This document shows positions 11,331 to 64,000 of a stretch of 64,000 nt of DNA, one piece after another. Each line of letters opens with the position of its first letter. The stretch's first letter is position 1. Below the pieces are notes generated by a model. It ran no database searches, was not told where the DNA came from, and was given only the letters and a program-made list of their open reading frames with translations. The DNA comes from Obrimoposthia wandeli (lineage: Eukaryota): positions 248,001-312,000 of the forward strand of contig CDROCS010000275.1 in the NCBI GenBank assembly GCA_977020255.1, read 5' to 3'. Made by a program: the position numbers and the translations under genes.

Positions 11331-11654
11331 CTAAAACCATCAAATACTGTTTCGAGATCATCGCCTTCAATCACAAAGTGTGTAAAATAATCAATGCTTA
11401 CCATCGCTACTGCAGCCACAAAACTAATTTTTTATGCCACTATAACATTGAAAAATAAAATATGCATTAATCTATAAAGTTTAAAATTTGTCATTTTTGT
11501 GTCGTCGTTTTACCATACCATCTCACACCTGACAACTAGAAACTCTATAAGCATTAGATTCTGTGACTAAGGTCATTCTGAGATTTTCTAATGTGGAGAT
11601 TCCGAATATAATATCCATATGACCATTTTGTTTTACTAAAGTGGCATATACATG

Positions 11655-12991
11655 AGTAGGTAGAAGGATGGAGTCTAGATCACTTGACCCCCCCTGTGTG
11701 CGCACACCAAGTTAAAGGGTGGTGTGCGCACACCAAGTTAAAGGGTTTCACACCATAAGGGTGTCTTGCCACACCATAAGGGTATATGTTGCCTCACCAT
11801 AAGGGTGTCTTGCCACATCATAAGGGTCTGGCTCAGAAAGGTTATGAAGGTTTGAAGGTATGGTCGTGACGGTCTATGGTCGGCCAACATACCCAAGGGG
11901 TTGTGGTCGTCCATAGGTCAAAGGGTCGGGGTCAGTTTTGACTTGAAGGTTTGAAGGTATGGTCGTGACCGCCTATGGTCGGTCAACATACCCAAGGGGT
12001 TGTGGTCGTCCATAAATCAAAGGGTCGGACTCAGTTTTGACTTGAAACTTTGAAGGTATAATTAAGGTCAACTATGGTCGGCCGTCACATCTAAAGGGTT
12101 GTGGTTGTCCATAGGTCAAAGGGTCAAGGTCAGTTTTGACTTGAAACTTTGAAGGTATAATTAAGGTCAACTATGGTTGGTCATCACATCTAAAGAGTTG
12201 TGGTCGTCCATAAATCAAATGGTCGGACTAAAAAAAAAAAAAAAAAAAATATCAAGGTTTTAGTACATGGTTGTAATCATCTTTAGAAGACGAAGTCACT
12301 CATAAAGTATTGTCGGTCATATATGAATGGGTCGGGATATAGACCAAATCAAGTTTTAAATGTCAAAGTTTGAATACATGGTTGTAATCATCTTTAGAAG
12401 ACGAATTCATCCATATAGGTATGGTCGTCCATAGATGAAGGGTTAAAAAAAACTTGGAATTTCATAGTTTCAAGTACATGGTTGTATTCGTCAACATATT
12501 ACGAGTTTATTCATGTAAAAATTTTATGGTCGTTCACAAGTTAAGGGTTAGATTTGGCATAAATTAAGAAATTATATAGTATTCAATCAATTATTCTATG
12601 TGAAAGTTCACTCTTAAAAGTTAAGGAATGTATTACGTAATCATACACACACTATTCTATGTGAAAATTTAAGCTAAAGTTCACTCTTATCAGTTAAGGA
12701 ATGTATTACGTAATCATACACACACTATTCTATGTGAAAATTTAGATCAAAGTTTTTTCCTAGGCTTACACATCTAAAGAAATATGGTAAAAATTATTTA
12801 AATAACATAAATTATATATTAAAATAAAATATCCTTAATAAATATATTTATATACAATTTACATAATCAATACATAGAGAAAAACATTTCAAATAAGCAC
12901 AATGTTTTCCGTGTTTTCTAAACGGACATCGAATAATTTTGGCATTTTCTTTAAATTTTTGAAACTTTTATTATAATTCACAATTCTCAAA
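11655..12991 (+). repeat. Left TIR of the Polinton (~1.3 kb, internally repetitive)
   Basis: Reverse complement of 23884-25157, apart from differences in repeat copy number. Confidence 0.9.
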
Positions 12992-13038
12992 ATAAATAAG
13001 AAAGAAGTCAGAGAATAATACAAAATTAAACACATTTA

Positions 13039-16000
13039 TTATGTAATTTCATAATGTCCATAAGCGCGGCTTCTATTTTTCTCGTTCCAATAGCGTTTGT
13101 CATCTGATGAGCTGAGAGCAGTCTTTTGTGTTATGATTGTGTATAGTTGATGATTTATTGTTCCAAACTTCTTTTGTGGTATAGTATATGCATTACCGTT
13201 TTCATACACGTCTAAATATGTTTGATGTACAACCGTTGATCCCTTAAGATTTACTCCTTTTGCTTTATTATTTTCAAAGTCATCTTCAAACTTAAGTGAA
13301 TAACATTTACAAAGTAAGAAAATCCATTCTTTATACATTCTTCCTTCCGATTCATCTTTAAATAAACCTATTTTACTATTAAATTTATTAGAATATAATG
13401 GATCATTCACATTATAATTTGACGTATCTAATAATCCATCTGCAATCATTTTTGGTAACAACTGTTTTCTTAAATTAACGTTTTTACATTCCAAAAAGAA
13501 TGAGTCGTTATCACCGGCAACTATATTAATTGAACAATTGAATAAATTACGATATATTTGCAAATCATGATACTGAAGAGTATACATTCGTAATTTGCTA
13601 AGGTCTAGTACAGCTTGGCCTATATAATTTGGTCGATCGAGACAAATAAAGTCTTTTCTTAATAAAACAGCTATTAAATTATCATGAATTTCAATTGTTC
13701 GTTGAAACATAGGTTTGCTAGTATATGTAATTAATTTTGTAGAACTAGTGCAGATGCGAAGATTCAACCGTTTCTTAACATTTTCAACGGTCTTTCCATA
13801 CAAACTAACATTTTTAAGTTTATAAAAATCTTTGTCACATTTATTCGTTGCTTGTGATCTCATTTCTGAATTATATTCTATATATTCTGCGAATATCTTA
13901 GCCTGAGAGAATTTTACTGCTCGAAGAATAATTGTTACCACTGCTCCTAAACTAACATACATCTGCAATAGTCTCCAATGAATAACATAATGACTTTTTG
14001 GCGAATGCGTCATTAAAAGTTTTTCAACTTTTTTACCAGGTGGACATTTCTTTTCTGGAGCTATAGGAAGATCATCTAAAAAGTCATGAAGGTTTTCTGG
14101 TATTACCAAGTCTACTTCCATAACATAATCATATTCAATATGTTCCATGTTCACATTTTTCATTTCATGCAATATTTCGTTTAATTTTATATCATCAAGA
14201 ATCCATTCAAAATCTCCTTTTGGTAAAGGTTGATCAAGAGCCCATCCATATAAATTATTAACATCTATATATAAAAGACTTGTTTCTTCATCAGCGACTA
14301 CATGATGCTTATTGACAAATGTCATTCCTCCTCGTATACCCGAAGAAATCATGTTGTACATTTCAGGATCCTGCATCAGTTCAACCTTATGTTTTAACAT
14401 TTTTAGAGCACTTGCCCAACTCAACCCAGGAATGCTAAAAAGGTTAAGTGGTTCTAAACCATCTTCACTGAGAGCTTTTCTTCTGAATGTTTGAAACACG
14501 TCAGCTAATAAATATATGTCAGTCTTTAAGTAAACTAACATATAATCCAACATATTTCTACAATTGGTTATTTTCCAAACATCTTGTGCTTTTTGATATT
14601 CAGTGTCTGTGATTTTATCATTCCATTTTACTGGTAAACTTAACTTATTCTGGAGGACATTTAATGATGTAGCAAAATCATATGGGAATATTCCTTTGCC
14701 ATCAATAAGTTTAGATGGAAAAACTGATCTTGTTAATGGAATAGTTGGTAATTTACCGGCTAAATTTTCCAAAGATGATTGCAAAAATTGCAAAGAATCT
14801 ATAAATCTCAGAGTTATTTTACCTAATCTTACAATCATGGCTTGAAACTTTTCTGTTGATTGTGGTATAATATTTATATCCCAGTCAGTAAATTTATTCA
14901 ATGCATGTTTTAAAATATGATGTAAATCATAACCTCTGAGATTATGAAACACAATAGGTAAAGTTGGACGAAGTTTTCTTGATAAATTACATTCATTGCA
15001 TGCAGGACCTAGATACTTGCCAGTAAAGTGATCATGATCTTTAACATATTTTTCAGATGATTCGTGACATAAATAACATTCATCGGCATTGCTAAATGTA
15101 TGAATCTCTGCATTTGTTAAGGGAATCATTACGTTTTTAAGAGCATCTAAATACCATGGCAAAACCTTTTCTTTAGCCAAGTTCTCTATTGACTGAAGAA
15201 ATTTAACTATGCAGTCATCACCAACATTATGTTGATACTGCGTTTCAATTTCATCTGTACTCATAAATAACATACCAGATGCGACAGGCATATGCTTTTG
15301 ATGATAACTCTCATCTGGTACTAATACAGATTCAAAATCAGCGTAAACGACATATTTCGGTGATATAGTTTTTGACCAATCGTTGAATTTTAACGTACTT
15401 ATTCTTAGGCATAGTATACATTGTAGTGCTTTCTTGATTATAGTCACATAAAACTTTATGCTTTTCTAATGACAAATCGGTTTTGAAACCATGTAAACAC
15501 TTTTCACACCATTTTCTACTAATTCTAGTCGTTCCAGTTCGAATATTTAATAACCGGTTAAGACAACTTATTCCTATATAATGAAACCGTTCCTTGGATT
15601 CTAGTAACAATAAATTAACTCTAGTTCCTTCCTTCATTTTTGATTTGTATGCAACATCGATATAAGGATTCTTGATAACATCAGTTTTTGATTCTTTTTC
15701 ACTTACCTCATTGAATATGAATACATTTATTATTATACCAGGGTTTTGCCTTTCAAATTTTGATATATTTGATATTTTCATTGGCATGTCTTCAGTATTA
15801 TATACAAAATCATTTAAAAATCTTTCATAGTTACTTGGTCTATTTCTATTTATTTCTATTTCATTATATTTAAGTATTGATAATATTGCATAAATAAAGC
15901 AAAGATTATCAGAGTTTTGAATATTTATGACTGCTTTAGATTTTGTAAGAGAATTTGGTGATTTAATATATGAATGACCTGACAATGCACAAATTTGACT

Positions 16001-16705
16001 ATATTTAGTAACAATAAATGCATATTCAAGTATATTCATCAATTTCCAACCACTACCTTTTTCTGAATATTCTTCAACTTTATTTTCCATTGTATCTTCC
16101 AATTCTGAAATTATAGCATGTGAAAAAATCATTGCTCGATGCGAAGCATACCATTCTTTAGTTTCTCCATCATTCTTTTCAAACCTCATTCTAATGATGT
16201 ATTGTATCTTTGCATTTCCCATTAATTGCACTATTCTTTCTAGTTCGTTTAATAATGAAACTGGAACCTTAAGACTTACAAGATTGAGATGATCTACTTT
16301 CATGGATATCATTGAATAACTATTTTCTAACGATGTTTTAGTCTGTATATTGTCATTTATTTTACGTTTTCGTGACGGAGTAGGAGCTGAAATTACTATG
16401 TTTGATGATTCATTAATTATATCAGTTCTTTTGCTTAAAGCCGGTACTTTAAATAATGTTTTCTTACTACCATTTTTATATTCTTTTAAATGACTAACAT
16501 GTCGACTATAAAATAAGTTGTAATCAACATTTTCAGTGCTTAAACATTGTGGACATATGAAATAATTTATCTTTTTGTATGAATAACCATAATAATTTTT
16601 CATGATATCATGACAGACTTGAGGATTAAAATGTGTTTCCAATGAACAATAATTTGAATAAGTTTTACATATACTCATCTGATGATATGATTGGTATTGA
16701 GACAT
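13039..16705 (-). pseudogene. polB: Protein-primed family B DNA polymerase, split by a +1 frameshift near 15380
   Basis: ORFs 15338-16780 and 13039-15447 join as MPKNKYVK|FNDWSKT if one A of an AAAA run is removed. Motifs: DNLCF...HY (vOTU-like terminal-protein region), YADFES, CYLC..DHDH..CNECN, FHNLRGYD, YIDVNNLYG, KLKNVSLYGK, GDNDS. Confidence 0.95.
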
Positions 16706-16758
16706 TGATTGATTTGATTGAACTTGAGATATTGATTGATTTGTATACTGAATAAAAA

Positions 16759-16777
16759 ATATATATATATATAAATA
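16759..16777. promoter_or_regulatory. (AT)n-TATAAATA tract in the short divergent polB / TBP-like intergenic region
   Basis: atatatatatatataaata between ATG 16705 (minus) and ATG 16803 (plus); function inferred. Confidence 0.4.
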
Positions 16778-16802
16778 CAATAATTTAATTATTTTACTTA
16801 CA

Positions 16803-17357
16803 ATGTTAACAAATATTAATTATGAAGGAATTTGCTTAGATGATGTATCCAAATTAAAATTTCGAACACGACCAGAACAATACGTTTATAAAGCCAAAGA
16901 TTATACAATACTTATTTTTAGAAATAAGAAATGCAGGATTATGGGATGTAAGGTACCTATTAAAAATATTTCTTACCCTTTAAGAATAAATATACTTGGT
17001 ATTCAATCAATTACGGTATGTGAAAATTTAGATCAAAGTATCAATCTATTTAAATTATGGAATGTGTTACGTAATACATGTTCATTTGACCCTGAGGTTT
17101 TCCCAGGCTTAAGATTAAATATTTTCAATCCATTGTGTGTAAATATTTTCACATCTGGAAAGGTCGTAATTTTAGGTCTTAGAAATTTAGATTTTCAAAA
17201 TCAAGTTAACGATATCATGACATACATTAAAAAAAATTATATAAATACGAAACAATTTCTAATTAAATCATTCAATTTTAAATGTCTTATAAAGCCGTTC
17301 AAAAGTATTACGAGTATGATATGTTCTTCTTGGCATCTGCATGGATTCATCCAATGA
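16803..17357 (+). CDS. TATA-binding protein (TBP)-like protein
   Basis: Two TBP repeats: TILIFRNKKCRIMGCK resembles TALIFSSGKMVCTGAK; IQSITVCENL...SFDPEVFPGL..VNIFTSGKVVILGLR resembles IQNMVGSCDV...SYEPELFPGL..LLIFVSGKVVLTGAK. Confidence 0.85.
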   Translation: MLTNINYEGICLDDVSKLKFRTRPEQYVYKAKDYTILIFRNKKCRIMGCKVPIKNISYPLRINILGIQSITVCENLDQSINLFKLWNVLRNTCSFDPEVFPGLRLNIFNPLCVNIFTSGKVVILGLRNLDFQNQVNDIMTYIKKNYINTKQFLIKSFNFKCLIKPFKSITSMICSSWHLHGFIQ

Positions 17358-17668
17358 CTATGCCAGTGACATTATCGAAAACTTCGTACAATTACCGAGT
17401 CTCTGATTTTGACGACAAAGACATTCAACAATTCAATGAAGTCGTCAAATATTTGAAAATTGACATTGAACTTGAGAATGAGGGTATATTTATGCGCGGA
17501 GATAAGTGCAAATTTTATGATTGTTCCGGAACAAAGATTTCGGATATTCAAGAAGATGGAAGAAGTTGGATGCTCGAAATAAAAATTCTCGGATATAAAA
17601 TAAATAAAAAGAATGAAACAACTCTCATCTGGAGGATTCATACAGCGGCCGAATATTTTGATGATTAA
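17282..17668 (+). CDS. Hypothetical protein, possibly OB-fold ssDNA-binding (start 17282 or 17354)
   Basis: Beta-rich 128-aa ORF ending IWRIH...EYFDD (acidic tail); ATGA overlap with the TBP-like stop at 17354-17357. The function is inference. Confidence 0.4.
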   Translation: MSYKAVQKYYEYDMFFLASAWIHPMTMPVTLSKTSYNYRVSDFDDKDIQQFNEVVKYLKIDIELENEGIFMRGDKCKFYDCSGTKISDIQEDGRSWMLEIKILGYKINKKNETTLIWRIHTAAEYFDD

Positions 17669-17749
17669 TAAATATTTAATAAAATGTTGTTATTGTTATA
17701 AACATGTACTTATTCTGATATATTTATTTTATATTAATATTTATATATA

Positions 17750-18368
17750 ATGTTATTAACAAACAATTCGACTTTTCAAGTAGTAGGACCAAGTGGTAGT
17801 GGAAAAACTTTATTTGTTTGTAAATTATTAAATTCAAAAATGTTTAAAAATAAATTTAATAAAATATATTGGCATCAAGGTGGTGACGGAGAAGCTGGTT
17901 TAACAAACCAAGAATTTAATAAAATAAAAAACATTAAGATTATTAACGGTTTTGATGAAAATTGGACGACAAGACTTGTAAAAGGTGATGTAATTGTTAT
18001 TGATGACTTATATCAAGAGGCTAACAAAGAATCTGATTTTAATGATTTATTTACAAAAATTGCAAGACATAGAGAAGTTACTGTAATTTTTATAACCCAA
18101 AATTTATTTCAATCATCGTACTCGTAATCTTAATGTACATTATTTGATTTTATTCAAAAATCCTAGAGATCAAACAGTGATAGATTTTATTACTCGTCAA
18201 GCATTTCCTCATAACAAGAGTTATTTAATTGATGCGTTTCATGATGCTACATCTTTACCTCATGGTTATTTATTTTTAAATTTTACTCAATCATGTCCTG
18301 ATGATTTAAGAATTGTTACTGATATATTTAACCGTAATGGTATTACAGTCTATAAACAAAATAAATAA
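17750..18368 (+). pseudogene. A32/FtsK-like genome packaging ATPase, frameshifted near 18112
   Basis: Walker A GPSGSGKT, Walker B VIVIDDL, RHREVTVIFITQNLF; continues in another frame as HRTRNLNVHYLILFKNPRD. Confidence 0.92.
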
Positions 18369-18388
18369 TAATAATGTTTTAAAATAAA

Positions 18389-18799
18389 ATGAATTTTAAA
18401 AAGAGTATTCTTAAACATAGTAAAAGGACAGATAAAGATGAAGTTAAAAAATTAATAAACACTGTATTATATGATCGTAATAATATTGAATTTTCAAAAA
18501 GTTTACCTTATTTTTAAACCTTAATTGACGTATCAAAAACGAATAAAATGAAAATGTTGAAATCATTTCCAATTTATGTAGTTGATGATTTAATAAAAAT
18601 TTTAAATAAAATAATTTATGGTAAAATTAAACCTGATCCTAATATTTTAAAATATAAAAATTCATTAATAAATTTAGCAAATTCACGTGGTAAAATTAAT
18701 AAAAGAAACATTATTTACAATCAAAATGGCGGATTCCTATTGGCCATACTGCCCGCTATAGCATCAGTAATAGCTGGTCTTATAACTTCAAGAAGTTAG
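18389..18799 (+). pseudogene. Basic core protein ending in an adenovirus pX-like GG|FL motif; in-frame TAA at 18515-18517
   Basis: ATG 18389 is in frame with ORF 18548-18799; C-terminus NQNGGFLLAILPAIASVIAGL. Confidence 0.7.
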
Positions 18800-18822
18800 A
18801 AGTTTAAAAAAAAATTATAAAA

Positions 18823-19130
18823 TTATATAAGAGTCTTACAAAGTAACATTAATAAGAAACTTACATTAAATGTTGAAGTAGATTCTCCCGATGTACCAGG
18901 AACCATTGTTGTTGATGCTGATGTAGAAATCATTACCGCGGCTGCTAGTCTAAAAACAATATTAAAATTAATTTAAAAAAGAAAAAAAAATACTTTTTAT
19001 GTTTCTTACTCTGCATATGAGCATCCATTGAATATTTATTATTCATTGGTCCTGTTTGACATATTTGGCAATTAAATCTAAATATAAATCATAATTAAAA
19101 AAAATATATATAATAAACTCACGTATTCAT
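18823..19130 (-). CDS. Spliced micro-gene encoding a U1/zf-met-type C2H2 zinc finger; not in the ORF track
   Basis: Exons 19130-19123, 19077-18994 and 18949-18823; GT-AG introns of 45 and 44 nt restore MNTFNCQICQTGPMNNKYSMDAHMQSKKHKKLAAAV... Confidence 0.7.
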
Positions 19131-19456
19131 TTTGAGTCTTGATTTATTTAAATTAAAGAAAATAACAAAATAGTAAATTATATTTAATTTAACATTTCAA
19201 TTTATAATAGATATCCTATTATGTAATTTCAATTATTGATAATAATATAATTATCTCAATTGCTACAATTGAATTGTGCCTATTTAATTAAGATAGTTGC
19301 CTTAATAACGAAAATTATAATAATATTAAATAATTACATTCTTTCGTTTTATACAAACATATAAACAGATTAAAATATATTTAACTTTTATAATAATGGG
19401 GATAAACAATACAAAGTTGTCTAACTTATTTATAAATTTTAATTCTTCATGCTGCA

Positions 19457-20482
19457 ATGGAAAAGATTTGGAACAATCCAGAAGATCCAGACGGGTATAC
19501 AGGGTTAGAAAAATTGACAAACAGAGTCAAACAATCAAAAACAAACACACAAAAATGGTTAAGAAATGAATTATCATATAGTTTGAATAAACCTTTAAGA
19601 CGTAAATTTCCTACTAGATCATATAAAACTAATGGTATTAATTCCTTATGGCAGATGGATTTAATGGAAATGATACCTTATTCTTCAGTAAATAACGGAT
19701 TCAAGTATATTTTAACTTGTATTGATGTATTTAGTCGTTTTGCAAGGGCAGTTGGTATTAAATCAAAATCGGGTATTGATTTATTACATGCAATAGAATC
19801 TTTAATTGTTGATGATGTACCAGTAAATATCCAAACCGATGAAGGTAAAGAATTTTTTAATTCACATGTTAAGAAATTATTTAAAACTGAAAATATCAAT
19901 CATTATTCAGTATATTCTCAATATAAAGCTGCAGTAGTTGAAAGATTTAATAGAACGTTAAGAGAACGGTTAAAGAAATATTTTACTAAACAAGGTAATA
20001 AGAAATGGGTGAATGTATTACCAAACATTATTTATGCTTATAATAATTCTAAACATAGAGGTTTAGATGGTTTAAAACCTGTAGATGTAAATAATAAAAA
20101 TGCATTTGAAATTTGGTTGAAACAAAATCCAAAAGAAAAGAAAGTTAAATCTAAATATAAAATTGATGATTATGTTCGAATATCAAAAATAAGTTCAAGT
20201 CCATTTATTAAAAATTTTAATCAAAATTGGAGTGATGAGGTTTTTCAAATTCATGATATTAATTATAAACAAAATCCAATAATGTATATTTTAAAAGATA
20301 TTGATAACGTCATCATCAAAGGAAAATTTTATAAACAAGAGTTACAATTAATTGATAAACCTAAACTATATCGAATACAAGAAATTTTAAAAACTAAAGG
20401 TCGTGGTAAGAATAAACAATATTACGTAAAGTGGCACGGATACTCTGAACCTTCTTGGATATTTGCTTCTCAAATTGAATAA
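19457..20482 (+). CDS. Retroviral-type DDE integrase with C-terminal chromodomain (intact ORF)
   Basis: WQMDL, IQTDEGKEF, AVVERFNRTL; C-terminal YYVKWHGYSEPSWI. Confidence 0.97.
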   Translation: MEKIWNNPEDPDGYTGLEKLTNRVKQSKTNTQKWLRNELSYSLNKPLRRKFPTRSYKTNGINSLWQMDLMEMIPYSSVNNGFKYILTCIDVFSRFARAVGIKSKSGIDLLHAIESLIVDDVPVNIQTDEGKEFFNSHVKKLFKTENINHYSVYSQYKAAVVERFNRTLRERLKKYFTKQGNKKWVNVLPNIIYAYNNSKHRGLDGLKPVDVNNKNAFEIWLKQNPKEKKVKSKYKIDDYVRISKISSSPFIKNFNQNWSDEVFQIHDINYKQNPIMYILKDIDNVIIKGKFYKQELQLIDKPKLYRIQEILKTKGRGKNKQYYVKWHGYSEPSWIFASQIE

Positions 20483-21494
20483 TGTCAAAATATATCATTT
20501 TACCTAGTTATAGTTGTCCAAGTACTCAACCTAACAATACAGCCAATCAATTTACTGTAGATTGGGAAAACTCTCTAAATTTAGATGGTGAATGGGAGGT
20601 TGCCTTGACTGAATTTGTATTTAATTATACTCCTTTAACAATACAAACTAATTCAAAAATACTTTATAAAACAGAAAAGATAGAAATGAAAACTTTCGAT
20701 GTATCTTTTGCAATTTTAAATGGATTAATTTTTAATAATTTAAATAATGTTTTCAATTTCAAAATTACAAAGGATCAAAAATTAGAAATAAGTACAATTA
20801 ACAGTATTCCTCGAATGTTGTTAAAATTCGAATCTTTAGAAGAATCAAAAATTATAGGTTTTAATGAAATACAAAAAATTGCTAGTCATGTTATAACAAG
20901 TGATGAAATTGTTGACATAAATAAAAATATTCATGCTAAAATGAGAATTACAATTTATTCTTTAGCTGAATATGAATACGAAATAAAATTTAATCAAAGT
21001 TATTTGATACAAGATAGTTCTTCATTATGTAATATTATAGCCAGTAAATGTAATGCGATTTTTAAAAGCTGTAATATAGATTCAAACGGATTATTTGATA
21101 TTTTAATAAATATAAATGTAAAATCAGTTTTATTTGACGAAAAACTTGCATCTTTATTAGGTTTAAATAATGTTTTCTTTGAGAAACGAATTAAAGGTTT
21201 TCAAGAACCAACACTTTCTAGCTCATATAATCAAATGTATATTTATACTAGTTTAACAGATTCTGTCTTAGTAGGATCTGATTATGTTCCACTGTTAAAG
21301 TCTATTTGGTTAAAATCATTAAAATATCGATATGGAGATGTAGTAAATGTTAAAATTGATAATCCAATGTACTTGAAAATAAGAGATTCAAGTATTAATA
21401 GAATCGAGGTAAATATACGTGATGATTCTGGTAATTTAATTCCATTTTCATATGGAGCAAAACTAGTTTAACTCTTCATTTACGTAAAGTATAA
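20482..21494 (+). pseudogene. Minor capsid protein (penton); terminal 1-nt frameshift near 21460
   Basis: NNTANQFTV...DGEWEVALTEF; MYIYTS...VPLLK; IEVNIRDDSG; the natural end TLHLRKV* is in a shifted frame. Confidence 0.85.
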
Positions 21495-21530
21495 ACAATA
21501 TAAATATATTTAAAATATAAAAATATAAAA

Positions 21531-21932
21531 ATGAATACATCAATTATAAAATTTTACAGCAAAAGTCAACAGGGCGGTGAACTTCCCTATTTCATTGGTA
21601 AGCAATATGGATCTGGTTGGTTTCAAACTATTTCTAGATTAGCTATTCCATTTATTAAAAAAGCTGGTTTATCAGCAGCTACAAGTGCTGCCAATGCAAT
21701 TGGCGAAACGGTAGGAACTGCGTTAACAAATCCAAAAAACTTAATTTCATCTCTCAAAGAAAATACAATCAAAGAAGTCAAAACTTTGATTCCAAAATTA
21801 AAAAATAATGCTGTTGAGAGTTTAAATAAAGTCGCAAATTGTGTTGAACAAAATGGAAAGGGTCTTAAACGTAAAAGAAATCATTTAAATAGTATAAACA
21901 AACGTCTTAAAGGTACTATATTCCAAAAATGA
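21531..21932 (+). CDS. Polinton small virion protein (pVI-like, amphipathic) with QxGG/QxGxG motifs
   Basis: QQGG, QYGSGWFQTISRLAIPFIKK and QNGKGLKRKR; lies between penton and MCP. Confidence 0.7.
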   Translation: MNTSIIKFYSKSQQGGELPYFIGKQYGSGWFQTISRLAIPFIKKAGLSAATSAANAIGETVGTALTNPKNLISSLKENTIKEVKTLIPKLKNNAVESLNKVANCVEQNGKGLKRKRNHLNSINKRLKGTIFQK

Positions 21933-23149
21933 CTAGTATAAAATCTGAATTGTGTATTTTCTATAGACCACTACCTCAAGTAGTGATTGAAAATTCAAGT
22001 TTTGAAGAAATATTTCCAATCAATTCAATTACTGGGGGAAATTTAAATGACATAGAATTTAATATTCATGCATCTGAATAAGATTATCTGGATTTGAATG
22101 ATACTTTGTTAAATATTAAATTAAAAGTTGTAAATGAAGATGGTACTGATTTAATGAAAGATAACGATGTAACTCCAGATAATTACATGTTTCAAACTTT
22201 GTTTAGAGATGTTATTCTAACACTTAATAATGTAAAGGTTGAAGGAGGAAATGGAACGTATACTCATAAGGCTATATTCGATACTCTTTTGAATTTTAGT
22301 AGTGATACCAAGTATACTAACCTTGAATGTTCCGGGTATGATGATGATGCAAAAAATCGTAAACAATGGATTAGTGAATCTAAAATATTTTCATTGTGTA
22401 ATTCAATTAGATTAGATTTCTTTGATCAACCAAAATATTTGATTCCAGGGATTAATGTTCATTTGAGATTTATGAGAAATCAGCATAATTTTTCGCTCTA
22501 TTCAGAAACTTCAAAACCAATTATTCAAATTCTAGATGCTAGATTGTATGTTAGAAGAGTAAAAGTTGATTCTTCAGTAATGATTGGACATCAGTTAGGT
22601 TTGCAAAGTCAGAATGCAGTTTACCCAATTAGAAAAACTCAGTTAGTAACATATTCAATTCCTCAGGGTTCTTTGGAACTTAATAAAGATCAAATATTCG
22701 GAGACTATCGTTTACCCAAGTTCATTTTGATTGCTTTCAAAGATACACCTCAGGGTGGTAAGGAATACAAAGTTAAATCTTCTACGTTCAATACATTTAA
22801 TGTTTCAACAATATCATTAGCTAGAAATACAGATTATCGAGAAACTTATAATCTAGATAATAACAATTTTTCATTAGCATATATGCAGTCAATTATTCGA
22901 AATATGAATATTTTAGATAAAAACTTGAATAATGGTATCAGATTTTCTGATTTTAAATCAAGAAGTTCGATTTTCACTTTTCTATTAGCACCAGATTTTG
23001 ATATAAACACTACTCAAGTGCCTAAAACTGGTAATTTAAGACTTGAAATTAGATTTAATTCTCCTTTGGTTGTTCCAACAAGTGTTTTGATTTACGGAAT
23101 ATTTGATTCCGAAATTCAGATTACGAAAAATAAAACTGTGATTGTATGA
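21929..23149 (+). pseudogene. Double jelly-roll major capsid protein with in-frame TAA at 22079-22081
   Basis: ATG 21929 MTSIKSELCIF...IEFNIHASE*DYLDLNDTLL is in frame with ORF 22094-23149; typical LRLEIRF..P C-terminus. Confidence 0.9.
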
Positions 23150-23522
23150 AGTAAGCTTATTGTATATTATATTCTTTATTTAAATTAGTACTTTAGAAAT
23201 TTATAAATCCGGAAAAATATTATTGAATAACAAATTTAATGGAGTATATTCATTGGATAAAATTCCATCATTAAAACCCGGAGGCTACATTATCAATACT
23301 CATACTTCAAATCTACCAGGCGAACATTGGATAGCAATATTCGTTGACAGATTCGAGATTCGAGTGTTTGATCCTTTTGGATTCTATTATCCTTCAAAGT
23401 TGGTGTCTACACTTGAAAAAGAAAACATTCCAGTCTACTATAATCGAGTTAAATTTCAGAATCCATTAACTAAAAACTGCAGACCTCTGAGTCTTTTATG
23501 GTTGAAACTTCAACACAAATAA
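23146..23522 (+). pseudogene. Adenain-family cysteine protease, N-terminus disrupted
   Basis: NTHTSNLPGEHWIA, VFDPFG, FQNPLTKNC (usual CG is CR here). Confidence 0.85.
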
Positions 23523-23574
23523 TTTTAAGTATAAACAAATATATCATTATAGTATTTCATTTTATTTTTTTCAA

Positions 23575-24028
23575 ATGGCTTTTTTTTGATTTAGAATGTT
23601 TTATTGATAATAATGGAGAATATATTCCAAAGGAATTATGTATAATGTATGTGAATGATATGACTTGTCCATTTCATTACGTGTTTAAAAATCAAATACT
23701 ATGGAGTAGTTTATCATTTACAGTTAAAAGAAAAAATCTATATTTGATAAATCATCATCATCAGTTATCCTGGTTTGAAGGTGAAAGCTCTGATATTCAT
23801 ATTGATGATGTTGAAACAATATTCTATGTTATGGATTCTATTGATGGAAAGAAAATTAATTTAGTGAAACGAATGTTTCCAAATTTGAGAATTGTGAATT
23901 ATAATAAAAGTTTCAAAAATTTAAAGAAAATGCCAAAAAATATTCGATGTCCGTTTAGAAAACACGGAAAACATTGTGCTTATTTGAAATGTTTTTCTCT
24001 ATGTATTGATTATGTAAATTGTATATAA
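23575..24028 (+). pseudogene. DnaQ/DEDD-like exonuclease-type accessory protein, probable +1 T frameshift after the start
   Basis: FFDLECF...PKEL and C-terminal CPFRKHGKHCAYLKC; removing one T of an 8-T run gives MAFFDLE from ATG 23575. Confidence 0.6.
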
Positions 24029-25157
24029 ATATATTTATTAAGGATATTTTATTTTAATATATAATTTATGTTATTTAAATAATTTTTACCATATTTCTTT
24101 AGATGTGTAAGCCTAGGAAAAAACTTTGATCTAAATTTTCACATAGAATAGTGTGTGTATGATTACGTAATACATTCCTTAACTGATAAGAGTGAACTTT
24201 AGCTTAAATTTTCACATAGAATAGTGTGTGTATGATTACGTAATACATTCCTTAACTTTTAAGAGTGAACTTTCACATAGAATAATTGATTGAATACTAT
24301 ATAATTTCTTAATTTATGCCAAATCTAACCCTTAACTTGTGAACGACCATAAAATTTTTACATGAATAAACTCGTAATATGTTGACGAATACAACCATGT
24401 ACTTGAAACTATGAAATTCCAACTTTTTTTTAACCCTTCATCTATGGACGACCATACCTATATGGATGAATTCGTCTTCTAAAGATGATTACAACCATGT
24501 ATTCAAACTTTGACATTTAAAACTTGATTTGGTCTATAGCTCGACCCTTTGATTTATGGACAGTCATACTTTATGGGTGACTTCGTCTTCTAAAGATGAT
24601 TACAACCATGTACTAAAACCTTGATATTTTAATTTTTTTTTTAGTCCTACCCTTTGACCTATGGACGACCACAACCCTTTAGATGTGATGACCAACCATA
24701 GTTGACCTTAATCATACCTTCAAAGTTTCAAGTCAAAACTGAGTCTGACCCTTTGATTTATGGACGACCACAACCCTTTAGATGTGACGGCCAACTATAG
24801 TTGACCTTAATTATACCTTCAAAGTTTCAAGTCAAAACTGACCTTGACCCTTTGAATTATGGACGACCATAGTGGTATACCAAAGAAGGGTGGAGACTAG
24901 ATCAATTGACCCTTCCGCCCTCCCCCCTTAAAACCTTCAAGTCAAAACTGACCTTGACCCTTTGACCTATGGACGACCACAACCCCTTGGGTATGTTGGT
25001 CGACCATAGACCGTCACGACCATACCTTCAAACCTTCATAACCTTTCTGAGCCAGACCCTTATGGTGTGGCAAGACACCCTTATGGTGTGACACCCTTTA
25101 ACTTGGTGTGCGCACACAGGGGGGTCAAGTGATCTAGACTCCATCCTTCTACCTACT
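23884..25157 (-). repeat. Right TIR of the Polinton
   Basis: Inverted copy of 11655-12991. Confidence 0.9.
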
Positions 25158-25578
25158 TACATGTATATTCGTACTGATTTTGGGAAATGGACAATTAATT
25201 GATATATATTAAATCAAATGCCTATATTTATAATCCTGTTCTAAGACATATTAGGAGCAAAATAAATAAAATAATTTTAAATAATTCAAATAACTAAAAT
25301 GTTACAGTTACAAGAGTTAACTTTATTAGTCAGAGTCACCTGAGGCCCTACACCATCAGTGGGTTTTTCTAACAAAAATTTGGAAACGTGAGTAAGTCAT
25401 TAAAAGTGGATTCAAGAAGTCATCATTATACGAGGAGTGAAAACCGAACGAGAAATTCTGAGATAGTGAATTAAGCATAAAATAAAATCTATTTTTGTTT
25501 TATCTCAGTAGATGTAGATATAAAAGAGGACAAGAATTCCAATTGAAGACAAAAAAACATTGATAGCGAAATTTCCAC

Positions 25579-31106: not shown

Positions 31107-34100
31107 AGTAGGTAGAAGGATGGAGTCTAGATCACTTGACCCCCCCTGTGTGCGCACACCAAGTTAAAGGGTGTCACACCATAGAAATGTCACACCATAA
31201 GGTGTCACACCATAAGGGTATATGTTGCCTCACCATAAGGGTATATGTTGCCTCACCATAGAAATGTCACACCATGAAGGTATATGTTGACTCACCATAA
31301 GGGTGTCTTGCCACACCATAAGGGTCTGGCTCAGAAAGGTTAAGATAGAGAGGGAGGGGGGAAGGGTCAATTGATCTAGTCTCCACCCTTCTTTGGTATA
31401 CCACTATGGTCGTCCATAATTCAAAGGGTCAAGGTCAGTTTTGACTTGAAGGTTTTAAGGTATGGTCATGACCGTCTTTGGTTGGCCATCACATCTAAAG
31501 GGTTGTGGTCGTCCATAAATCAAAGGGTCAAGGTCAGTTTTGACTTGAAGGTTTTAAGGTATGGTCATGACCGTCTATGGTTGGCCATCACATCTAAAGG
31601 GTTGTGGTCGTCCATAAATCAAAGGGTCTAGGTCAGTTTTGACTTGAAACTTTGAAGGTATAATTAAGGTCAACTATGGTTGACCATCACATCTAAAGGA
31701 TTGTGGTCGTCCATAGGTCAAAGGGTCGGACTAAAAAAAAAAAATTAACGAATTCATCCATATAGGTATGGTCGTCCATAGATGAAGGGTTAAAAAAAAT
31801 TGGAATTTCATAGTTTCAAGTACATGGTTGTATTTGTCAACATATTACGAGTTTAATCATGTAAAAATTTTATGGTCGTTCACAAGTTAAGGGTCAGATT
31901 TGGAACAAACATGATAATTTTATTACATGGCGGTATTTGCATATGAAAATTGACTTCAAAGATACCCTTAAGGTCATGCAAACTTTAAGAGGTCCTTGTA
32001 AAAAATAAAAATACTTGTAATTTTCTAAAATAAAAATATTTTTTAAATTTAAATTTGTGCCAAATTATTTTGTTAGATTTTGTAAAGTTAAACAAATTTA
32101 ATTTATAGAATTTTTTAAAATATTAAAGTAACATTATTTAAAATAAATATTAGGGAAAATGTTAATAAACTCAAATTACTTTACTAACAGTATTATTATT
32201 ATTATTATTATTTTTTCATAAATATTTAAATTTACGCAAATTTTTATCCATTTTATTAATGTAATTAAACAATTCCTGGTCCTGGTGAAAAATAAAAAAT
32301 ACTTGTAATTTTCTAAAATAAAAATATTTTTAAATTTAAATTTGTGCCAAATTATTTTGTTAGATTTTGGTAAAGTTAAACAAATTTTAATTTAAGGGAT
32401 TTTTTAAGATATTAAAGTAACATTAATTAAAATAAATATTAAGAAAAAATGTTAATAAACTCAAATTACTTTACTAACAGTATTATTATTATTATTATTA
32501 TTATTTTTTTTTTTTCATAAATATTTAAATTTACGCAAATTTTTATCCATTTTATTAATGTAATTAAACAATTCTTTGCGGAAAAATTACTTGTAATTTT
32601 GTTTTTTCTTCAAAATAATAATAATTTAAATTTGCGCCAATTTAATTTATTAGATATTATTAAAGTTAAACAAATTTTAATTTAACAAGTTTTTTAATAT
32701 TAAAGTACCAACACATCTATCAATCAATTATTCTATGTGAAAGTTCACTCTTATCAGTTAAGGAATGTATTACGTAATCACACACACACTATCCTATGTG
32801 AAAATTTAGTACAAAGTTTTTCCCAGGCTTATGCATCTAAAGAATTATGGTAAAATTTCTTTAAATAACTTAAATTTCATGTCATACATACTTTGGAGTC
32901 CTGGAGAAAAATACTTGTAATTTTCTAAAATAATTTTATTTTTTTTTTAATTTAAATTTGTGCCAAATTTTTTATCGTTTCTTTGATTTAATTAAACAAA
33001 TTTGATTTTAAACATAATGTTAATTATAAAATAATTAATAATTTGATAAAAATTCATCTTACCACAAGTTATTCATCGAATCCATTGATGTATGTCCGTC
33101 AGCCTAATAGCATTATTCCATAATCTAACTGTAACTTTAGAAAAAAAAATAACAAATTTATTATATTAAAATTTAAAAATTGCGCGTTTTTTATTGTTTA
33201 CAATTAATGTATTAAAATAATGACGAAAATAGTTTCAAATACAAAGCAATTCATATTAATTATAACTAATTTATTAAAATAAACAAATTTACAAGTACTA
33301 TTTGATATTTTTAAAATATAAATAATTTATTTAAAAAAAAAGAATACTTCAAGTTCAAGTTAAATTTTGATAAATTCTAACATATTATTTTTAAATTACC
33401 GCCATTTATATATTATCCCTTTTGATGTATTTAAACAAATGTATATACAAACCTAATTATTATAACTCTAAGTTAAATATCTTAAATATTTATTAATTTT
33501 AAAATTGCATTATTTTATGATTGTAATTTATACCTAAAATAATGATGAATTTATTAAAAATATAATAATTACAAAGCAAATTAAAAAAAATTAAAAAAAA
33601 AATATATATATATATATATAAAGTAAAATCATTTGCTATTATTAATTTGTAATTTTCAAATTAATACTAGCAACCAATGAATAACATTAATAATATGTTT
33701 ACATTATATTAATTAATATGTAAATTTTCATGTGTGTGTTTTCTCTCACATAACTTTCACATGTTATAATGATCAATTAACACTCACATAAATAATTAAA
33801 ACATCCTTATAACATTCCTTAATTGATTTTTATTTAAACTGATAAAATTAACTTAATGTTATTCAAAGCTTACTAATTAAATAAATGTTTATTTAAATAA
33901 TTTGAGTATTAACATTATTCGATTTACACTATAAATATTCGAAAATATCTTTAACACATTAAAAAATAACTTCAATTTTTAAAATTTGTATCGAATATTG
34001 AAAATTCATTTGAAAACACATGTTTTTCGTCTATAAATTCGAATATAAAATCTTTAATTATATTGTTTTATATGTAAATAAATTAAAATATGTACATATT

Positions 34101-37100
34101 CGATTATGAATTAAGACTAATTGTATGAATTAATACAAGTGTAAATGTAAATAAAGGCAATTACAATTAACAATGAATGCAGTTACAAGTACAAGTAAGA
34201 AAGAATACGAATACAATTATGAATGAATATGAATGTAAAAACAAATGTACAAGTACATGAATGAATATTAGTAAAAATATCAATGCATTTGAGTTATAGT
34301 TTGAATAAAGGAGAGTTAGATTGAAAGTGAATGAATACAAGTATACATTCAAGTGAATGCAAATACGAGTAAGAGTTTCAGCAAGTAAATATAAAACTAT
34401 GAATGAGTGACAGTATAAGTGATTGAAAATAAGAGTGTCGATAGTTTGATTGAATGCGAGTGTAATTTATACTATAAGTAAATTAAAATAGAGTTTTCGT
34501 ATGAATAAAGTTATGTTAAGTTACAGTTAGATTAATAACAAGTAAGCAACTATAGGAAGCAGTGATATTGAAGTATGTTAAAAATTAGAACCACTAAGTT
34601 ATGGCAAGATTAATAAAAAACAACACCAAGTTTGAAGGTATGAATGAAAATTAGTAAAATATTTATGTATTTGAATGTAATTGAAAGATAGTTTGAATAA
34701 ATTACATTTAGATTGAATGTAAATGAATGCAAGTATGATTGAATGCTGTTACAAGTACAAGTAAGAAAGAATACGACTGCAAGTACGAATGTCAATTATG
34801 AATGAAAATTAGTAAATATATTAATGAATTTGAATAATTAAAATGTCTTATCTCGTTTGATAAAATTCCTTAATTGAAATATTTTAAAATAATTAGTTTA
34901 ATTTAAATTCTTTATTTTTAAATAACTCGATTATACAATTATATTCGTAAATATAATTGAAATTATCATTATTCGTTTCTCTTTTTAACTATTCGAAAAT
35001 ATATTTATATACAAATTTAGTAAATTAACTCAACAAACAATTTTATTTTTTAATTACTTGATATTTTTGCCATTGTCTTATTAATATAATATGAATATTC
35101 AATTTATTTCTTCAAAAATTCATTTTATATGTTAAATAATATTTTTTTACCACATTATTGTGGTTTTTATCAAGTGTTTTTATTTTTAAACTATAAAAAT
35201 ATTTTAATTATAAAGTTAGTAGCTGTATTCCGCCCACTGCATATAACATAAATTTCAAATATAAAGTACTATTAAATGTATTCTTTCAAATAGTAAATGT
35301 TTTTTCGAGTTATTTAATTTTGTTTACTAGACATTCGAAAATTGACTTGTAAACATAATATTATTTTGCATATATTCACTTTAATATGTTGTAAGTTATT
35401 ACTTTAATATAATCTACAACAAAAAACTTCAAATAATTTAATATTATGATTATTAAGTAAACTACTTGAAGTTTTTATATCAAATGATTTTACTTTATAT
35501 ATATATATATTTTTAATTTGCTTTGTAATTATTATATTTTTAATATATTCATCATTATTTTAGGCATAAATTACAATCATAAAATAATGCAATTTTAAAA
35601 TTAATAAATATTTAAGATATTTAACTTAGAGTTATAATAATTAGGTTTGTATATACATTTGTTTAAATACATCAAAAGGAATAATATAAAAATGGCGGTA
35701 ATTTAAAAATAATATGTTAAAATTTATCATTTTACAGACTTTTATTAAAATCTAAAGGGTTTAAAGCATAAATTGTAACAACAACAAAAGTACAAGTGAG
35801 TTAATATCTTGTAATATTCTATAATTTTTAACATTTGTATTTTAGTAGTTATTAATTGAACTTGAAGTATTCTTTTTTAAATAAATTATTTAAATTTTAA
35901 AAATATCAAATAGTACTTGTTAATATGAATTGCTTTGTATTTGAAACTATTTTCGTCATTGTTTTAATACATTAATTGTAAACAATAAAAAACGCGCAAT
36001 TTTTAAATTTTAATATAATAAATTTGTTATTTTTTTTTTCTAAAGTTACAGTTAGATTATGGAATAATGCTATTAGGCTGACGGACATACATCAATGGAT
36101 TCGATGAATAACTTGTGGTAAGATGAATTTTTATCAAATTATTAATTATTTTATAATTAACATTATGTTTAAAATCAAATTTGTTTAATTAAATCAAAGA
36201 AACGATAAAAAATTTGGCACAAATTTAAATTTTAAAAATATTTTTATTTTAGAAAATTACAAGGATTTTTCTCCAGGACTCCAAAGTATGTATGACATGA
36301 AATTTAAGTTATTTAAAGAAATTTTACCATAATTCTTTAGATGCATAAGCCTGGGAAAAATTTTGTACTAAATTTTCACGTAGAATAGTGTGTGTATTAT
36401 TACGTAATACATTCCTTAACTGATAAGAGTGAACTTTCACATAGAATAATTGATTGATAGATGTGTTGGTACTTTAATATTAAAAAACTTGTTAAATTAA
36501 AATTTGTTTAACTTTATTAATTTCTAACAAATTAAATTGGCGCAAATTTAAATTATTATTTTGAAGAAAACAAATTTACAAGTAATTTTTCCACCAGGAA
36601 TTGTTTAATTACATAAATAAAATGGATAAAAATTAGCGTAAATTTAAATATTTATGAAAAAATAATAATAATACTGTTAGTAAAGTAATTTGAGTTTATT
36701 AACATTTTTTCTTAATATTTATTTTAAATAATGTTACTTTAATATTTAAAAAAAAAAATGATATAAATTAAATTTGTTTAACTTTACCAAAATCTAACAA
36801 AATAATTTGGCACAAATTTAAATTTAAAAAAAATTTATTTTATTTTAAAAAAATTTTCAAGTATTTTTATTTTTTCACCAGGACCTCTTAAAGTATGAAT
36901 AACCTTAAGGGTATATTTGATCTAAATTTTCACATAGAATAGTATGTGTGTTAAAAACCACATTCCTTAACTGATAAGAGTGAACTTTAGCCTTGATTTT
37001 CACATAGAATAGTGTGTGTGTGATTACGTAACACATTCCTTAACTGATAATAGTGAACTTTCATATAGAATAATTGATTGAATACTATATAATTTTTTAA

Positions 37101-48831: not shown

Positions 48832-49035
48832 CTATTTACATGGCAGGCAATAGTAAGATAGACTTATAGGTCGACTTATAGACCTCTTATATGCACAATA
48901 TTCACCATGACAGTGATATGGACAGCAAATATTATTTGGAATTTTTAACAAATGATCATGCAAAATATTAAATATGATAAATGTATTGTACTTTTTGCCA
49001 TTCATTTCATCTAAAACATAAAAAAAACATTTCAA
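48832..49035 (-). pseudogene. Diverged remnant of the Polinton exonuclease-like gene
   Basis: FYVLDEMNGKK...KIPNNICCPYHCHGEYCAYK resembles FYVMDSIDGKK...KMPKNIRCPFRKHGKHCAYLK (23498-24028). Confidence 0.65.
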
Positions 49036-62689: not shown

Positions 62690-64000
62690 AGTAGGTAGAA
62701 GGATGGAGTCTAAGCCACTTGACCCCCCCCCGTGTGCGCACACCAAGTTAAAGGGTGTCACACCATAAGGGTGTCTTGCCACACCATAAGGGTGTCTTGC
62801 CACACCATAAGGGTCTGGCTCAGAAAGGTTAAGATAGGGGGGAGGGGGAAGGGTCAAGTGGCTTAGTCTCCAACCTTCTTTGGTATACCACTATGGTCGT
62901 CCATAATTCAAAGGGTCAAGGTCAGTTTTGACTTGAAGGTTTTAAGGTATGGTCATGATCGTCTATGGTTGGCCATCACATCTAAAGGGTTGTGGTCGTC
63001 CATAAATCAAAGGGTCAAGGTCAGTTTTGACTTGAAACTTTGAAGGTATAATTAAGGTCAACTATGGTCGGCCAACATACCCAAGGGGTTGTGGTCGTCC
63101 ATAATTCAAAGGGTCAAGGTCAGTTTTGACTTGAAACTTTGAAGGTATAATTAAGGTCAACTATGGTTGACCAACACATCTAAAGGGTCATGAACGTCCA
63201 TAGGTCAAAGGGTCGGACTAAAAAAAAAAAATTAAAATATCAAGGTTTTAGTACATGGTTGTAATCATCTTTAGAAGACGAAGTCACCCATAAAGTATGA
63301 CTGTCCATAAATCAAAGGGTTGGGATATAGACCAAATCAAGTTTTAAATGTCAAAGTTTGAATACATGGTTGTAATCATCTTTAGAAGACGAATTCATCC
63401 ATATAGGTATGGTCGTCCATAGATGAAGGGTTAAAAAAAGTTGGAATTTCATAGTTTCAAGTACATGGTTGTATTTGTCAACATATTACGAGTTTATTCA
63501 TGTAAAAATTTTATGGTCGTTCACAAGTTAAGGGTTAGATTTGGCATAAATTAAGAAATTATATAGTATTCAATCAATTATTCTATGTGAAAGTTCACTC
63601 TTAAAAGTTAAGGAATGTATTACGTAATCACACACACACTATTCTATGTGAAAATTTAGTCTAAAGTTCACTCTTATCAGTTAAGGAATGTGGTTTTTAA
63701 CACACACACTATTCTATGTGAAAATTTAGACTAAAATCACTCTTATCAGTTAAGGAATGTATTACGTAATCATACACACACTATTCTATGTGAAAATTTA
63801 GTACAAAGTTTTTTCCAGGCTTATGCATCTAAAGAAATATGGTAAAATTTATATTAAAATAAAAAATAAAATAAGAAAGAAGTCAGAGAATAATACAAAA
63901 TTAAACACATTTATTATGTAATTTCATAATATCATCTTCAAACTTAAGTGAATAACATTTAAAAAGTAAGAAAGTCCATTCTTTATACATTCTTTTCGTT
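62690..64000. mobile_element. Left end of a third copy of the same Polinton family (runs off the window), with internally deleted polB 3' end
   Basis: AGTAGGTAGAAGG start and TIR to ~63860. The sequence then matches 12992-13055 and jumps to 13280-13345. Confidence 0.92.

Follow-up and report, generated by a model that had tools for sequence, protein, structure and literature searches.

The window analysed here is a 64,000-nucleotide stretch of Obrimoposthia wandeli DNA (GCA_977020255.1, contig CDROCS010000275.1, positions 248,001 to 312,000, forward strand). It contains a 13.5-kb Polinton/Maverick element at 11655..25157, with AGTAG ends at 11655 and 25157 and TACATG, a 6-bp target duplication, on both flanks. 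Like other Polintons, the element has AG...CT ends on its terminal inverted repeats and is flanked by a target-site duplication of 6 bp; its inverted arms are 96% complementary and its GC content is about 26%. The core Polinton gene set is also present, comprising a protein-primed DNA polymerase (PolB), a retroviral-type integrase (rve, E 5e-10) and an A32-like packaging ATPase (Pox_A32, E 1e-5). Ends, flanks, arms and these three genes together bear out the earlier note, which had placed a TATA-binding protein (TBP) gene inside a Polinton. The element is laid out as follows.

11649..11654, plus strand: left target-site duplication TACATG, read at the left end
11655..25157, no strand: whole Polinton/Maverick element, 13.5 kb, AGTAG termini, from end and repeat comparison
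11655..12969, no strand: left terminal inverted repeat
13039..16705, minus strand: protein-primed family B DNA polymerase with HNH/endonuclease VII insert, in two frames, broken near 15338-15465 in the window copy
16803..17357, plus strand: TBP gene ORF, 184 aa, from the ORF list
16803..17240, plus strand: conserved TBP domain, codons 1-146, predicted ten-stranded saddle with helix-less N-lobe and complete C-lobe (Pfam, model, alignment)
17229..17236, plus strand: A-tract whose length differs among copies (copy comparison)
17241..17357, plus strand: copy-specific tail of the 184-aa ORF, without match in homologues and with low model confidence
17282..17668, plus strand: ORF128, of unknown function, beside TBP in many relatives and absent from some copies
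17750..18368, plus strand: packaging ATPase, Pox_A32-like (Pfam), broken near 18096-18127 in the window copy
19457..20482, plus strand: retroviral-type integrase with C-terminal chromodomain (Pfam)
20482..21471, plus strand: putative minor capsid protein, by position, without Pfam match
21531..21932, plus strand: ORF133
21929..23149, plus strand: putative major capsid protein, by position, without Pfam match, broken near 22081 in the window copy
23184..23522, plus strand: putative adenovirus-type cysteine protease, a frame without start codon
23498..24028, plus strand: ORF176, as called
23907..25157, no strand: right terminal inverted repeat
25158..25163, plus strand: right target-site duplication TACATG, read at the right end

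The putative names of the two capsid genes follow from gene order and that of the protease from a His/Asp/Cys pattern, and ORF176 is presumably a DEDD-type nuclease. The capsid candidates in the window have no Pfam match and are conserved in relatives. Three genes of this copy are split, those for polymerase, ATPase and major capsid, and no start codon opens the protease frame; the integrase and minor capsid frames are open. Endonuclease_7 is the sole Pfam match of the split PolB here, and PF03175 scores above cut-off at 91 places in the genome, several of which adjoin listed TBP copies. The TBP gene stands head-to-head with the polymerase.

The window has several other features. The left terminal repeat holds the 3′ end of ORF176 (12851-12990), so the repeat extends into coding sequence, and a short frame with a C2H2-like zinc-finger pattern lies between ORF83 and the integrase (18945-19088). 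Fragments of another Polinton (capsid 43% identical, ORF176-like), together with the polymerase end of the TBP-Polinton family, occupy 48874-51263 and 63931-63993, and further terminal-repeat pieces are found near 31.2-31.9, 36.9-37.7 and 62.8-63.7 kb. A very AT-rich element at 32603-36574 has long inverted arms of 341, 238 and 235 nt that are 93-95% complementary.

Profile matches and a predicted structure confirmed that ORF 16803-17357 encodes a TBP-fold protein. The Pfam TBP family (PF00352) matches residues 67-130, one repeat only, with an E value of 5e-12 and 45.9 bits against a cut-off of 22.9, and 35 of the 36 PDB sequence matches of the ORF are TBPs (best E 1.5e-14). An AlphaFold2 model of the 184-aa ORF, built on a 62-row alignment, has a mean pLDDT of 89.7. 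Its residues 1-150 align with yeast TBP 66-240 at Z 13.2 (rmsd 2.5, 148 residues), the best non-TBP fold reaching Z 6.4; the saddle fold for which the earlier note had proposed to look is thus the one predicted. Foldseek returned 44 matches at E<=0.001, all of those listed being TBP entries, and the Atlas matches are TBP clusters of 144-162 aa, whose taxon labels rest on few members. All ten strands and a complete C-lobe appear in the model. The N-lobe helices H1 and H2 do not: no helix is predicted in residues 1-75, at pLDDT 89-98, and the protein as modelled departs in this from canonical TBP, which has helices in both lobes with a basic patch on N-lobe H2. A long-form relative from a Polinton contig reaches Z values up to 18.1 against TBPs in its predicted model and keeps both helices, and the helix loss is therefore likely derived.

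The conserved protein is shorter than the ORF. The earlier note had called the ORF intact, which holds for codons 1-142 and fails beyond them, where the A-tract measures 7, 8, 9 or 10 nt in 7, 36, 53 and 4 copies, respectively (first 100 listed of 1,536 matches). With this variation, some of which may be assembly error, natural copies end mostly at 146, 154 or 184 codons, and the ORFs of 30 natural copies span 144-184 codons. Close homologues are mostly 145-170 aa long and show no match to the tail; 17 homologues of near length cover 52-83% of the query, and those reaching its C-terminal part cease matching near residue 145-150. Since homologues stop short and copy ORFs vary in this way, the last ~38 residues lie outside the conserved protein and the 184-aa length is copy-specific. 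Residues 161-184 are modelled at a pLDDT of only about 50-56.

We mapped residues onto yeast TBP through the yeast range of the PDB match for the C-lobe and by structural and sequence comparison for the N-lobe, using the DNA-contact list of Table 1 in the accessible part of PMC12529657. Canonical TBP has four intercalating phenylalanines, of which the family keeps three, at F116, F190 and F207 in yeast numbering, alongside P191 and N69. The three-phenylalanine signature described from the window alone therefore extends to the family, in which F39, F100 and F116 of the Polinton protein occupy 61/62, 62/62 and 62/62 rows; the position of F99 is Pro24 in 59/62 rows. Judged from this substitution, the protein could be weakened in DNA bending. 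Besides F99→P, the DNA face carries V71→N, A101→Q/M, V122→R, T124→M, N159→S, V161→T, I194→R, V203→C and L205→N, most of them in 52-62 of the 62 rows and most also present in the long-form relatives. The altered-specificity yeast variant TBPm3 is changed at three positions, I194, V203 and L205, according to the accessible text of PMC1636458, which also has the N-lobe reading the 3′ half of the TATA box and a yeast TBP variant disfavouring C in the downstream half. The long-form Polinton TBPs (165-171 aa; loci L069, L070 and L071) combine both N-lobe helices with an altered DNA face and the same upstream motif as the short forms, and so the change of the DNA face, as far as aligned residues tell, likely predates the loss of the helices.

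The surface that would meet TFIIB is preserved. The acidic stirrup noticed earlier as FDPE reads D96-P-E98 in the window and E-P-E in most relatives, with E96 and E98 each kept in 60/62 rows, so that by sequence the family retains the acidic C-lobe stirrup of canonical TBP. Two stirrup glutamates bind TFIIB, one of them only ~40% conserved in viral TBPs, and nearly all viral TBPs are accompanied by a virus-encoded TFIIB; of four conserved basic residues in contact with TFIIA, TAF1, Brf1/2 and Mot1, three are on N-lobe H2 (Ravarani 2020, PMC7221094, accessible portion). A search of the genome for TFIIB (PF00382) yielded 29 candidates and, from them, 12 matches; it showed nothing of high copy number to set beside the 1,536 element matches, at a sensitivity that could miss a very divergent TFIIB. 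With 12 matches genome-wide rather than hundreds, no element-encoded TFIIB was found. A complex predicted with the TFIIB core P0166 (84% identical to a host exon), without DNA and with the TFIIB alignment unused, scored 0.17 (mark 0.34), a value that we weigh neither for nor against TFIIB binding.

The gene is neither rare nor confined to one family. The 3′ end of the TBP gene has 1,536 exact pattern matches, and the genome holds over a thousand copies of the Polinton. All 150 places scored in the first genome search are 96-100% identical to the TBP gene, and across 30 copies the polymerase lies beside it in 30/30, the ATPase in 29/30 and ORF128 in 28/30. A TBP gene at 31-56% identity also occurs in two or more other Polinton families of the genome, and outside it 91 representatives score E<=1e-10. 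Among 50 metagenome loci, 39 have another gene of the element (23 a core Polinton gene, 16 more ORF128 or ORF176); of the 11 that do not, 10 are under 2 kb. The gene sits beside the ATPase or after ORF176, depending on the family. In the further Polinton families of the genome, TBP gene and motif occur together, some copies being nested in one another (loci L123-L138, L118). IMG/VR contained no family member, only five distant TBP matches at 30-36%, three distant ATPases and nothing for integrase or capsid, and the phage collection contained nothing matching. All eight own-genome places fetched by their ATPase have a TBP match within about 10 kb, and no complete TBP-less Polinton that could serve as a control was found among these places or the fetched relatives.

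In a 50-row tree of rows that we selected, with 'eukaryotic' and 'archaeal' labels read from the sequences, the 24 family rows fall on one side at 100/100 and 13 short forms group at 99/99. The family stands apart from all 26 non-family rows, including the two viral-contig TBPs, on a branch that is long against all cellular rows, in a tree with few TBPs of nucleocytoplasmic large DNA viruses (NCLDVs) and bootstrap values not fully settled. Host TBP paralogues group with eukaryotic TBPs outside the family, as they do in a 74-row quick tree. The comparison with host TBP and TRF that the earlier note had called for thus gives the family a branch of its own, and the one-off host capture it had named as a refutation is not what we see, since the gene is in other copies and other Polinton families. 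Recent capture of a host TBP was likewise rejected: the host paralogues match the C-terminal lobe only, at 29-44% in local alignments, and lie outside the family. Related TBP genes give dN/dS of 0.11-0.40 in the six unsaturated of eight pairs (two are saturated), and within-family pN/pS is 0.25 across 48/49 copies, best-matching ones and so biased toward intact genes; by these sequence measures the family is under purifying selection. The description of a streamlined, element-encoded TBP stands, with conservation across Polinton families, a TFIIB-type stirrup and no element TFIIB found.

The host genome itself holds several divergent TBP paralogues, with two pairs among them, one head-to-head on contig C238 and the other, on C60 and C1092, divergent and apparently intronless (loci L076-L081; C968 too). 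ORF128 belongs to a family found next to TBP genes, in one orientation or the other, and some copies in this genome lack it (window 17282-17668; L027-L048). Thirteen members gave no Pfam family above cut-off and no PDB match was found; Atlas matches at 0.90, with low recognition, offer a lead to DUF6751/ASCH-like clusters. For a single sample, the contigs of two runs show that the TBP-Polinton is present and include joints that skip ORF128. One Polinton relative (L037, 222-719) has an ORF that by eye resembles a ubiquitin-conjugating (E2) enzyme.

We analysed upstream sequences in 19 of the 50 metagenome loci (near-duplicates and short ones dropped) together with the window. Inspection of upstream regions had revealed the word YATAAACR in front of late-type genes, and the top 7-mers found de novo before ORFs were ATAAACA and TATAAAC. 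Sites 15-60 nt before an ORF start make up 57/113 of the occurrences of YATAAACR, where the baseline is 5% and 12 control patterns give 2-17%; the loci are related and some are near-duplicates, so motif counts are not independent. Counted from the first base of the motif, the ATG lies most often 32-38 nt away (33/72, only 8 shorter). YATAAACR precedes 15/15 distinct ATPase genes and most virion genes, is upstream of ORF176 in 7/9, and precedes 0/38 distinct TBP genes. Those 38 TBP genes have promoter words of another kind: a canonical TATA in 17 and a TCAY initiator-like word in 33, with a TATA-to-initiator spacing of 30-32 nt in 12 of the 17 that bear a TATA, a spacing matched by the 32-38-nt peak of YATAAACR before ATG. 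The window TBP gene has the TATA and no TCAY word. Promoter-type words in the window are as follows.

16768..16777, plus strand: canonical TATA box (TATATAAA/TATAAATA), 33-35 nt before the TBP start codon, a predicted host-read early promoter
17697..17704, plus strand: YATAAACR, 53 nt before the ATPase start
18351..18358, plus strand: YATAAACR in the last ATPase codons; a basic ORF of 42 aa begins 38 nt later, at 18389
19360..19367, plus strand: YATAAACR; a 57-aa Met-Gly ORF begins 36 nt later, at 19396, and overlaps the integrase start
21490..21497, plus strand: YATAAACR, 41 nt before ORF133
21893..21900, plus strand: YATAAACR; the putative major capsid gene begins 36 nt later, at 21929
23530..23537, plus strand: YATAAACR near the ORF176 start

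The virion cluster of the window holds nine sense and no antisense sites; shuffles average 1.3 and 0/500 reach nine. Six of the nine lie 36-53 nt before a start codon and three have no gene start nearby. None falls in the window's polymerase region, none was found in the terminal repeats, and the ATPase site is kept in 26/26 copies read. ORF83 and the minor capsid gene have AATAAACA in place of YATAAACR. Where the motif falls in coding sequence its bases are kept while the encoded residue changes, at 13/13 ATPase ends, where AT-rich codon bias alone favours these codons at about 0.72-0.76 each, and at 7/9 integrase ends, where the residues are His, Tyr, Asp or Asn. In two Polinton contigs found by their ATPase and without a TBP match, a small control, YATAAACR precedes 0/12 ORFs, against 43/158 in TBP-carrying loci; both contigs are partial (7.9 and 3.2 kb), from one assembly and of a different Polinton group, and a TBP gene could lie beyond the fetched DNA. 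A third such contig (L141) is rearranged and was set aside as uninformative.

Two kinds of small ORF lie behind the motif. A Met-Gly ORF with a Cys-containing motif overlaps or precedes the integrase start in several families (window 19396-19569; L037 4536-4736; L041 5592-5786; L056 1531-1710; L059 3410-3661) and, from its sequence, may encode a myristoylated virion protein. The other kind comes after the ATPase (window 18389-18517; L037 3936-4133; L041 5021-5197; L059 2850-3038), is short and very basic, and is a candidate DNA-condensing core protein.

These observations suggest how a Polinton might time its genes. Polintons have, to our knowledge, no RNA polymerase. The TBP gene would first be transcribed from an ordinary host-read TATA/initiator promoter, and its product would then bind the YATAAACR boxes that stand about 32-45 nt ahead of the genes for packaging, capsid and maturation. 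Through the kept stirrup it would recruit host TFIIB and, with it, RNA polymerase II (Pol II), which would start about 30 nt downstream of the motif and leave these genes with very short leaders. YATAAACR departs from TATA in the 3′ half of the box, the half read by the N-lobe, and the DNA-face changes would let the protein accept C at motif position 7; loss of N-lobe H2 would free it from Mot1/BTAF1, TAF1, Brf1 and TFIIA. We consider it probable that the Polinton TBP is a late-gene factor steering host Pol II to element promoters. The fold, the family conservation and the motif distribution are the basis of this reading, and from them we infer the binding, the use of host TFIIB and the early/late timing. 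The broader proposal is one we hold to be evenly poised: that a broad Polinton lineage runs a one-protein orthogonal promoter system, in which YATAAACR is read by a TBP whose DNA face has been re-engineered and which connects directly to host TFIIB and Pol II, and that one sub-lineage deleted both N-lobe helices to escape Mot1, TAF1 and Brf1. Among the functions originally offered for the gene, redirection of host Pol II gains specific support from a promoter-positioned motif that stands before virion genes but not before the TBP gene; competition with host TBP and binding of AT-rich DNA found no positive evidence.

A host factor, either a TBP/TRF paralogue or a forkhead protein, might instead read YATAAACR, in which case the element TBP would compete or serve as a decoy, by titrating TFIIB or by sitting on host TATA boxes. 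YATAAACR differs from TATA by one or two bases, and TATAAACA contains what we take to be a forkhead site (RYAAAYA); with both resemblances a host factor could read it. The host's divergent paralogues would supply candidates, and a decoy would need the stirrup that is kept. We nevertheless judge this unlikely: the general forkhead pattern is far less promoter-positioned (79/455, 17%, against 57/113), the spacing is sharp and TATA-like, the yeast variant disfavours C in the downstream half (PMC1636458, accessible text), and a decoy leaves the invariant new DNA-face residues R45, M47 and N114 unexplained. Motif and TBP could also work with the RNA polymerase of a helper giant virus, as in virophages, which have promoter motifs in common with their giant viruses. 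BFVD structural matches show TBP-fold factors in many NCLDVs, and poxvirus initiators contain TAAA, as YATAAACR does. Against such a helper, which we think very unlikely, the TBP genes carry TATA and TCAY words at host Pol II spacing, the family lies apart from the two viral-contig TBPs in the tree, the stirrup is of host type, and YATAAACR precedes 0/85 ORFs in four viral-contig TBP loci.

Two further readings detach the motif from the TBP. In one, the protein binds AT-rich or terminal DNA during replication, integration or packaging and YATAAACR is unrelated, for which its head-to-head position with the polymerase, the loss of one phenylalanine and both N-lobe helices, and the ~26% GC could be cited; its chances appear slim, given a nearly invariant TFIIB stirrup, a gene position that moves among families and terminal repeats free of the motif. 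In the other, YATAAACR is a 3′-end signal for polyadenylation or termination and says nothing about the TBP. TATAAA is a weak poly(A) variant, and the motif often overlaps the end of the previous gene: 38/103 sites lie within about 20 nt of a stop, and the 103 divide into 14 near a start only, 20 near a stop only, 40 near both and 29 near neither. Its occurrence at TBP 3′ ends, sorted by the next gene (7/20 against 4/20), does not discriminate. Yet after ORF176 with TBP next, the motif is present in only 1/13, though it stands upstream of ORF176 in 7/9, and it occurs between divergent genes in L041, L043 and L037. Absence before TBP and presence between divergent genes favour a promoter, and we allow the 3′-end reading only the slightest chance.

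If the broader proposal is true, it would give an unusually small natural two-lobed TBP and a first defined early-to-late switch in an animal Polinton, evidence of a timed viral programme in these elements. How Polintons control their capsid genes would come within reach of a direct test, with a dedicated TBP and a matching promoter word: the test would need a single small protein and a single site of 8 bp, about 30 nt downstream of which the start is predicted. Vertebrate Maverick virions had not been observed as of a 2021 abstract. A natural TBP without regulatory helices would be useful for asking what purpose the contacts with TFIIA, TAF1 and Mot1 serve, TBP and YATAAACR form a possible orthogonal TBP-promoter pair, and the motif can mark real small genes in Polintons.

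A TBP-like gene has been annotated in related elements before. The label 'TBP' appears in the Fig. 5 legend of Starrett 2021 (PMC8502044), for MELD viruses with adintovirus-like PolB, and in its preprint, as a legend abbreviation only; the accessible text has no family analysis and no promoter motif. The earlier statement that no Polinton TBP had been described accordingly fails for the label and stands for the analysis. The word 'transcription' was not found in the accessible parts of PMC11161782 or a nematode Polinton preprint, and PMC12220804 gave reference-list matches only. We found no analysis of a Polinton TBP or of YATAAACR in a literature search that covered subscription journals and Repbase reports little, where an earlier description may exist.

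With cellular TBPs (eukaryotic TBP/TRF and archaeal TBP; PF00352) the Polinton protein shares the predicted two-lobed, ten-stranded saddle, the residues F116, F190, F207, P191 and N69 and equivalents of the stirrup glutamates E186 and E188. It differs in its length of ~146 residues, in the absence of N-lobe helices from the model, in the proline at F99 and in about nine other DNA-face positions that are conserved in the Polinton form and mostly polar. On the predicted structure, it is a member of the TBP fold that lacks two canonical TBP features.

NCLDVs with TBP-TFIIB pairs mostly encode their own RNA polymerase. These pairs, as treated in the accessible portion of PMC7221094 and seen in BFVD structural matches, resemble the Polinton case in a virus-encoded TBP with a divergent N-lobe, proposed to evade Mot1/BTAF1. 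They differ in that no TFIIB was found beside the Polinton TBP, whose stirrup is host-like and whose helices appear deleted rather than altered, whereas the NCLDV stirrup is variable.

The closest functional likeness may be to the vTBPs of beta- and gammaherpesviruses (KSHV ORF24, EBV BcRF1, HCMV UL87) and their TATT late promoters, with which the Polinton protein would share a viral TBP fold, a polar DNA face, a variant TATA before structural genes and the use of host Pol II. The accessible part of PMC12529657 describes KSHV ORF24 as a multi-domain protein of 752 residues that belongs to a complex of six members and binds Pol II directly, lists polar residues at V122, T124, V161 and L205 (Table 1), and states in a section heading that the ORF24 model is incompatible with TFIIB binding. 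The Polinton protein, in contrast to the herpesviral vTBP and its preinitiation complex (vPIC), is a bare domain of ~146 residues that keeps the TFIIB stirrup and has none of the large multi-domain layout, in which Pol II is bound by the N-terminal domain. By this analogy, we read the Polinton TBP as a protein that would work like the herpesviral vTBP-TATT system while not being a member of it.
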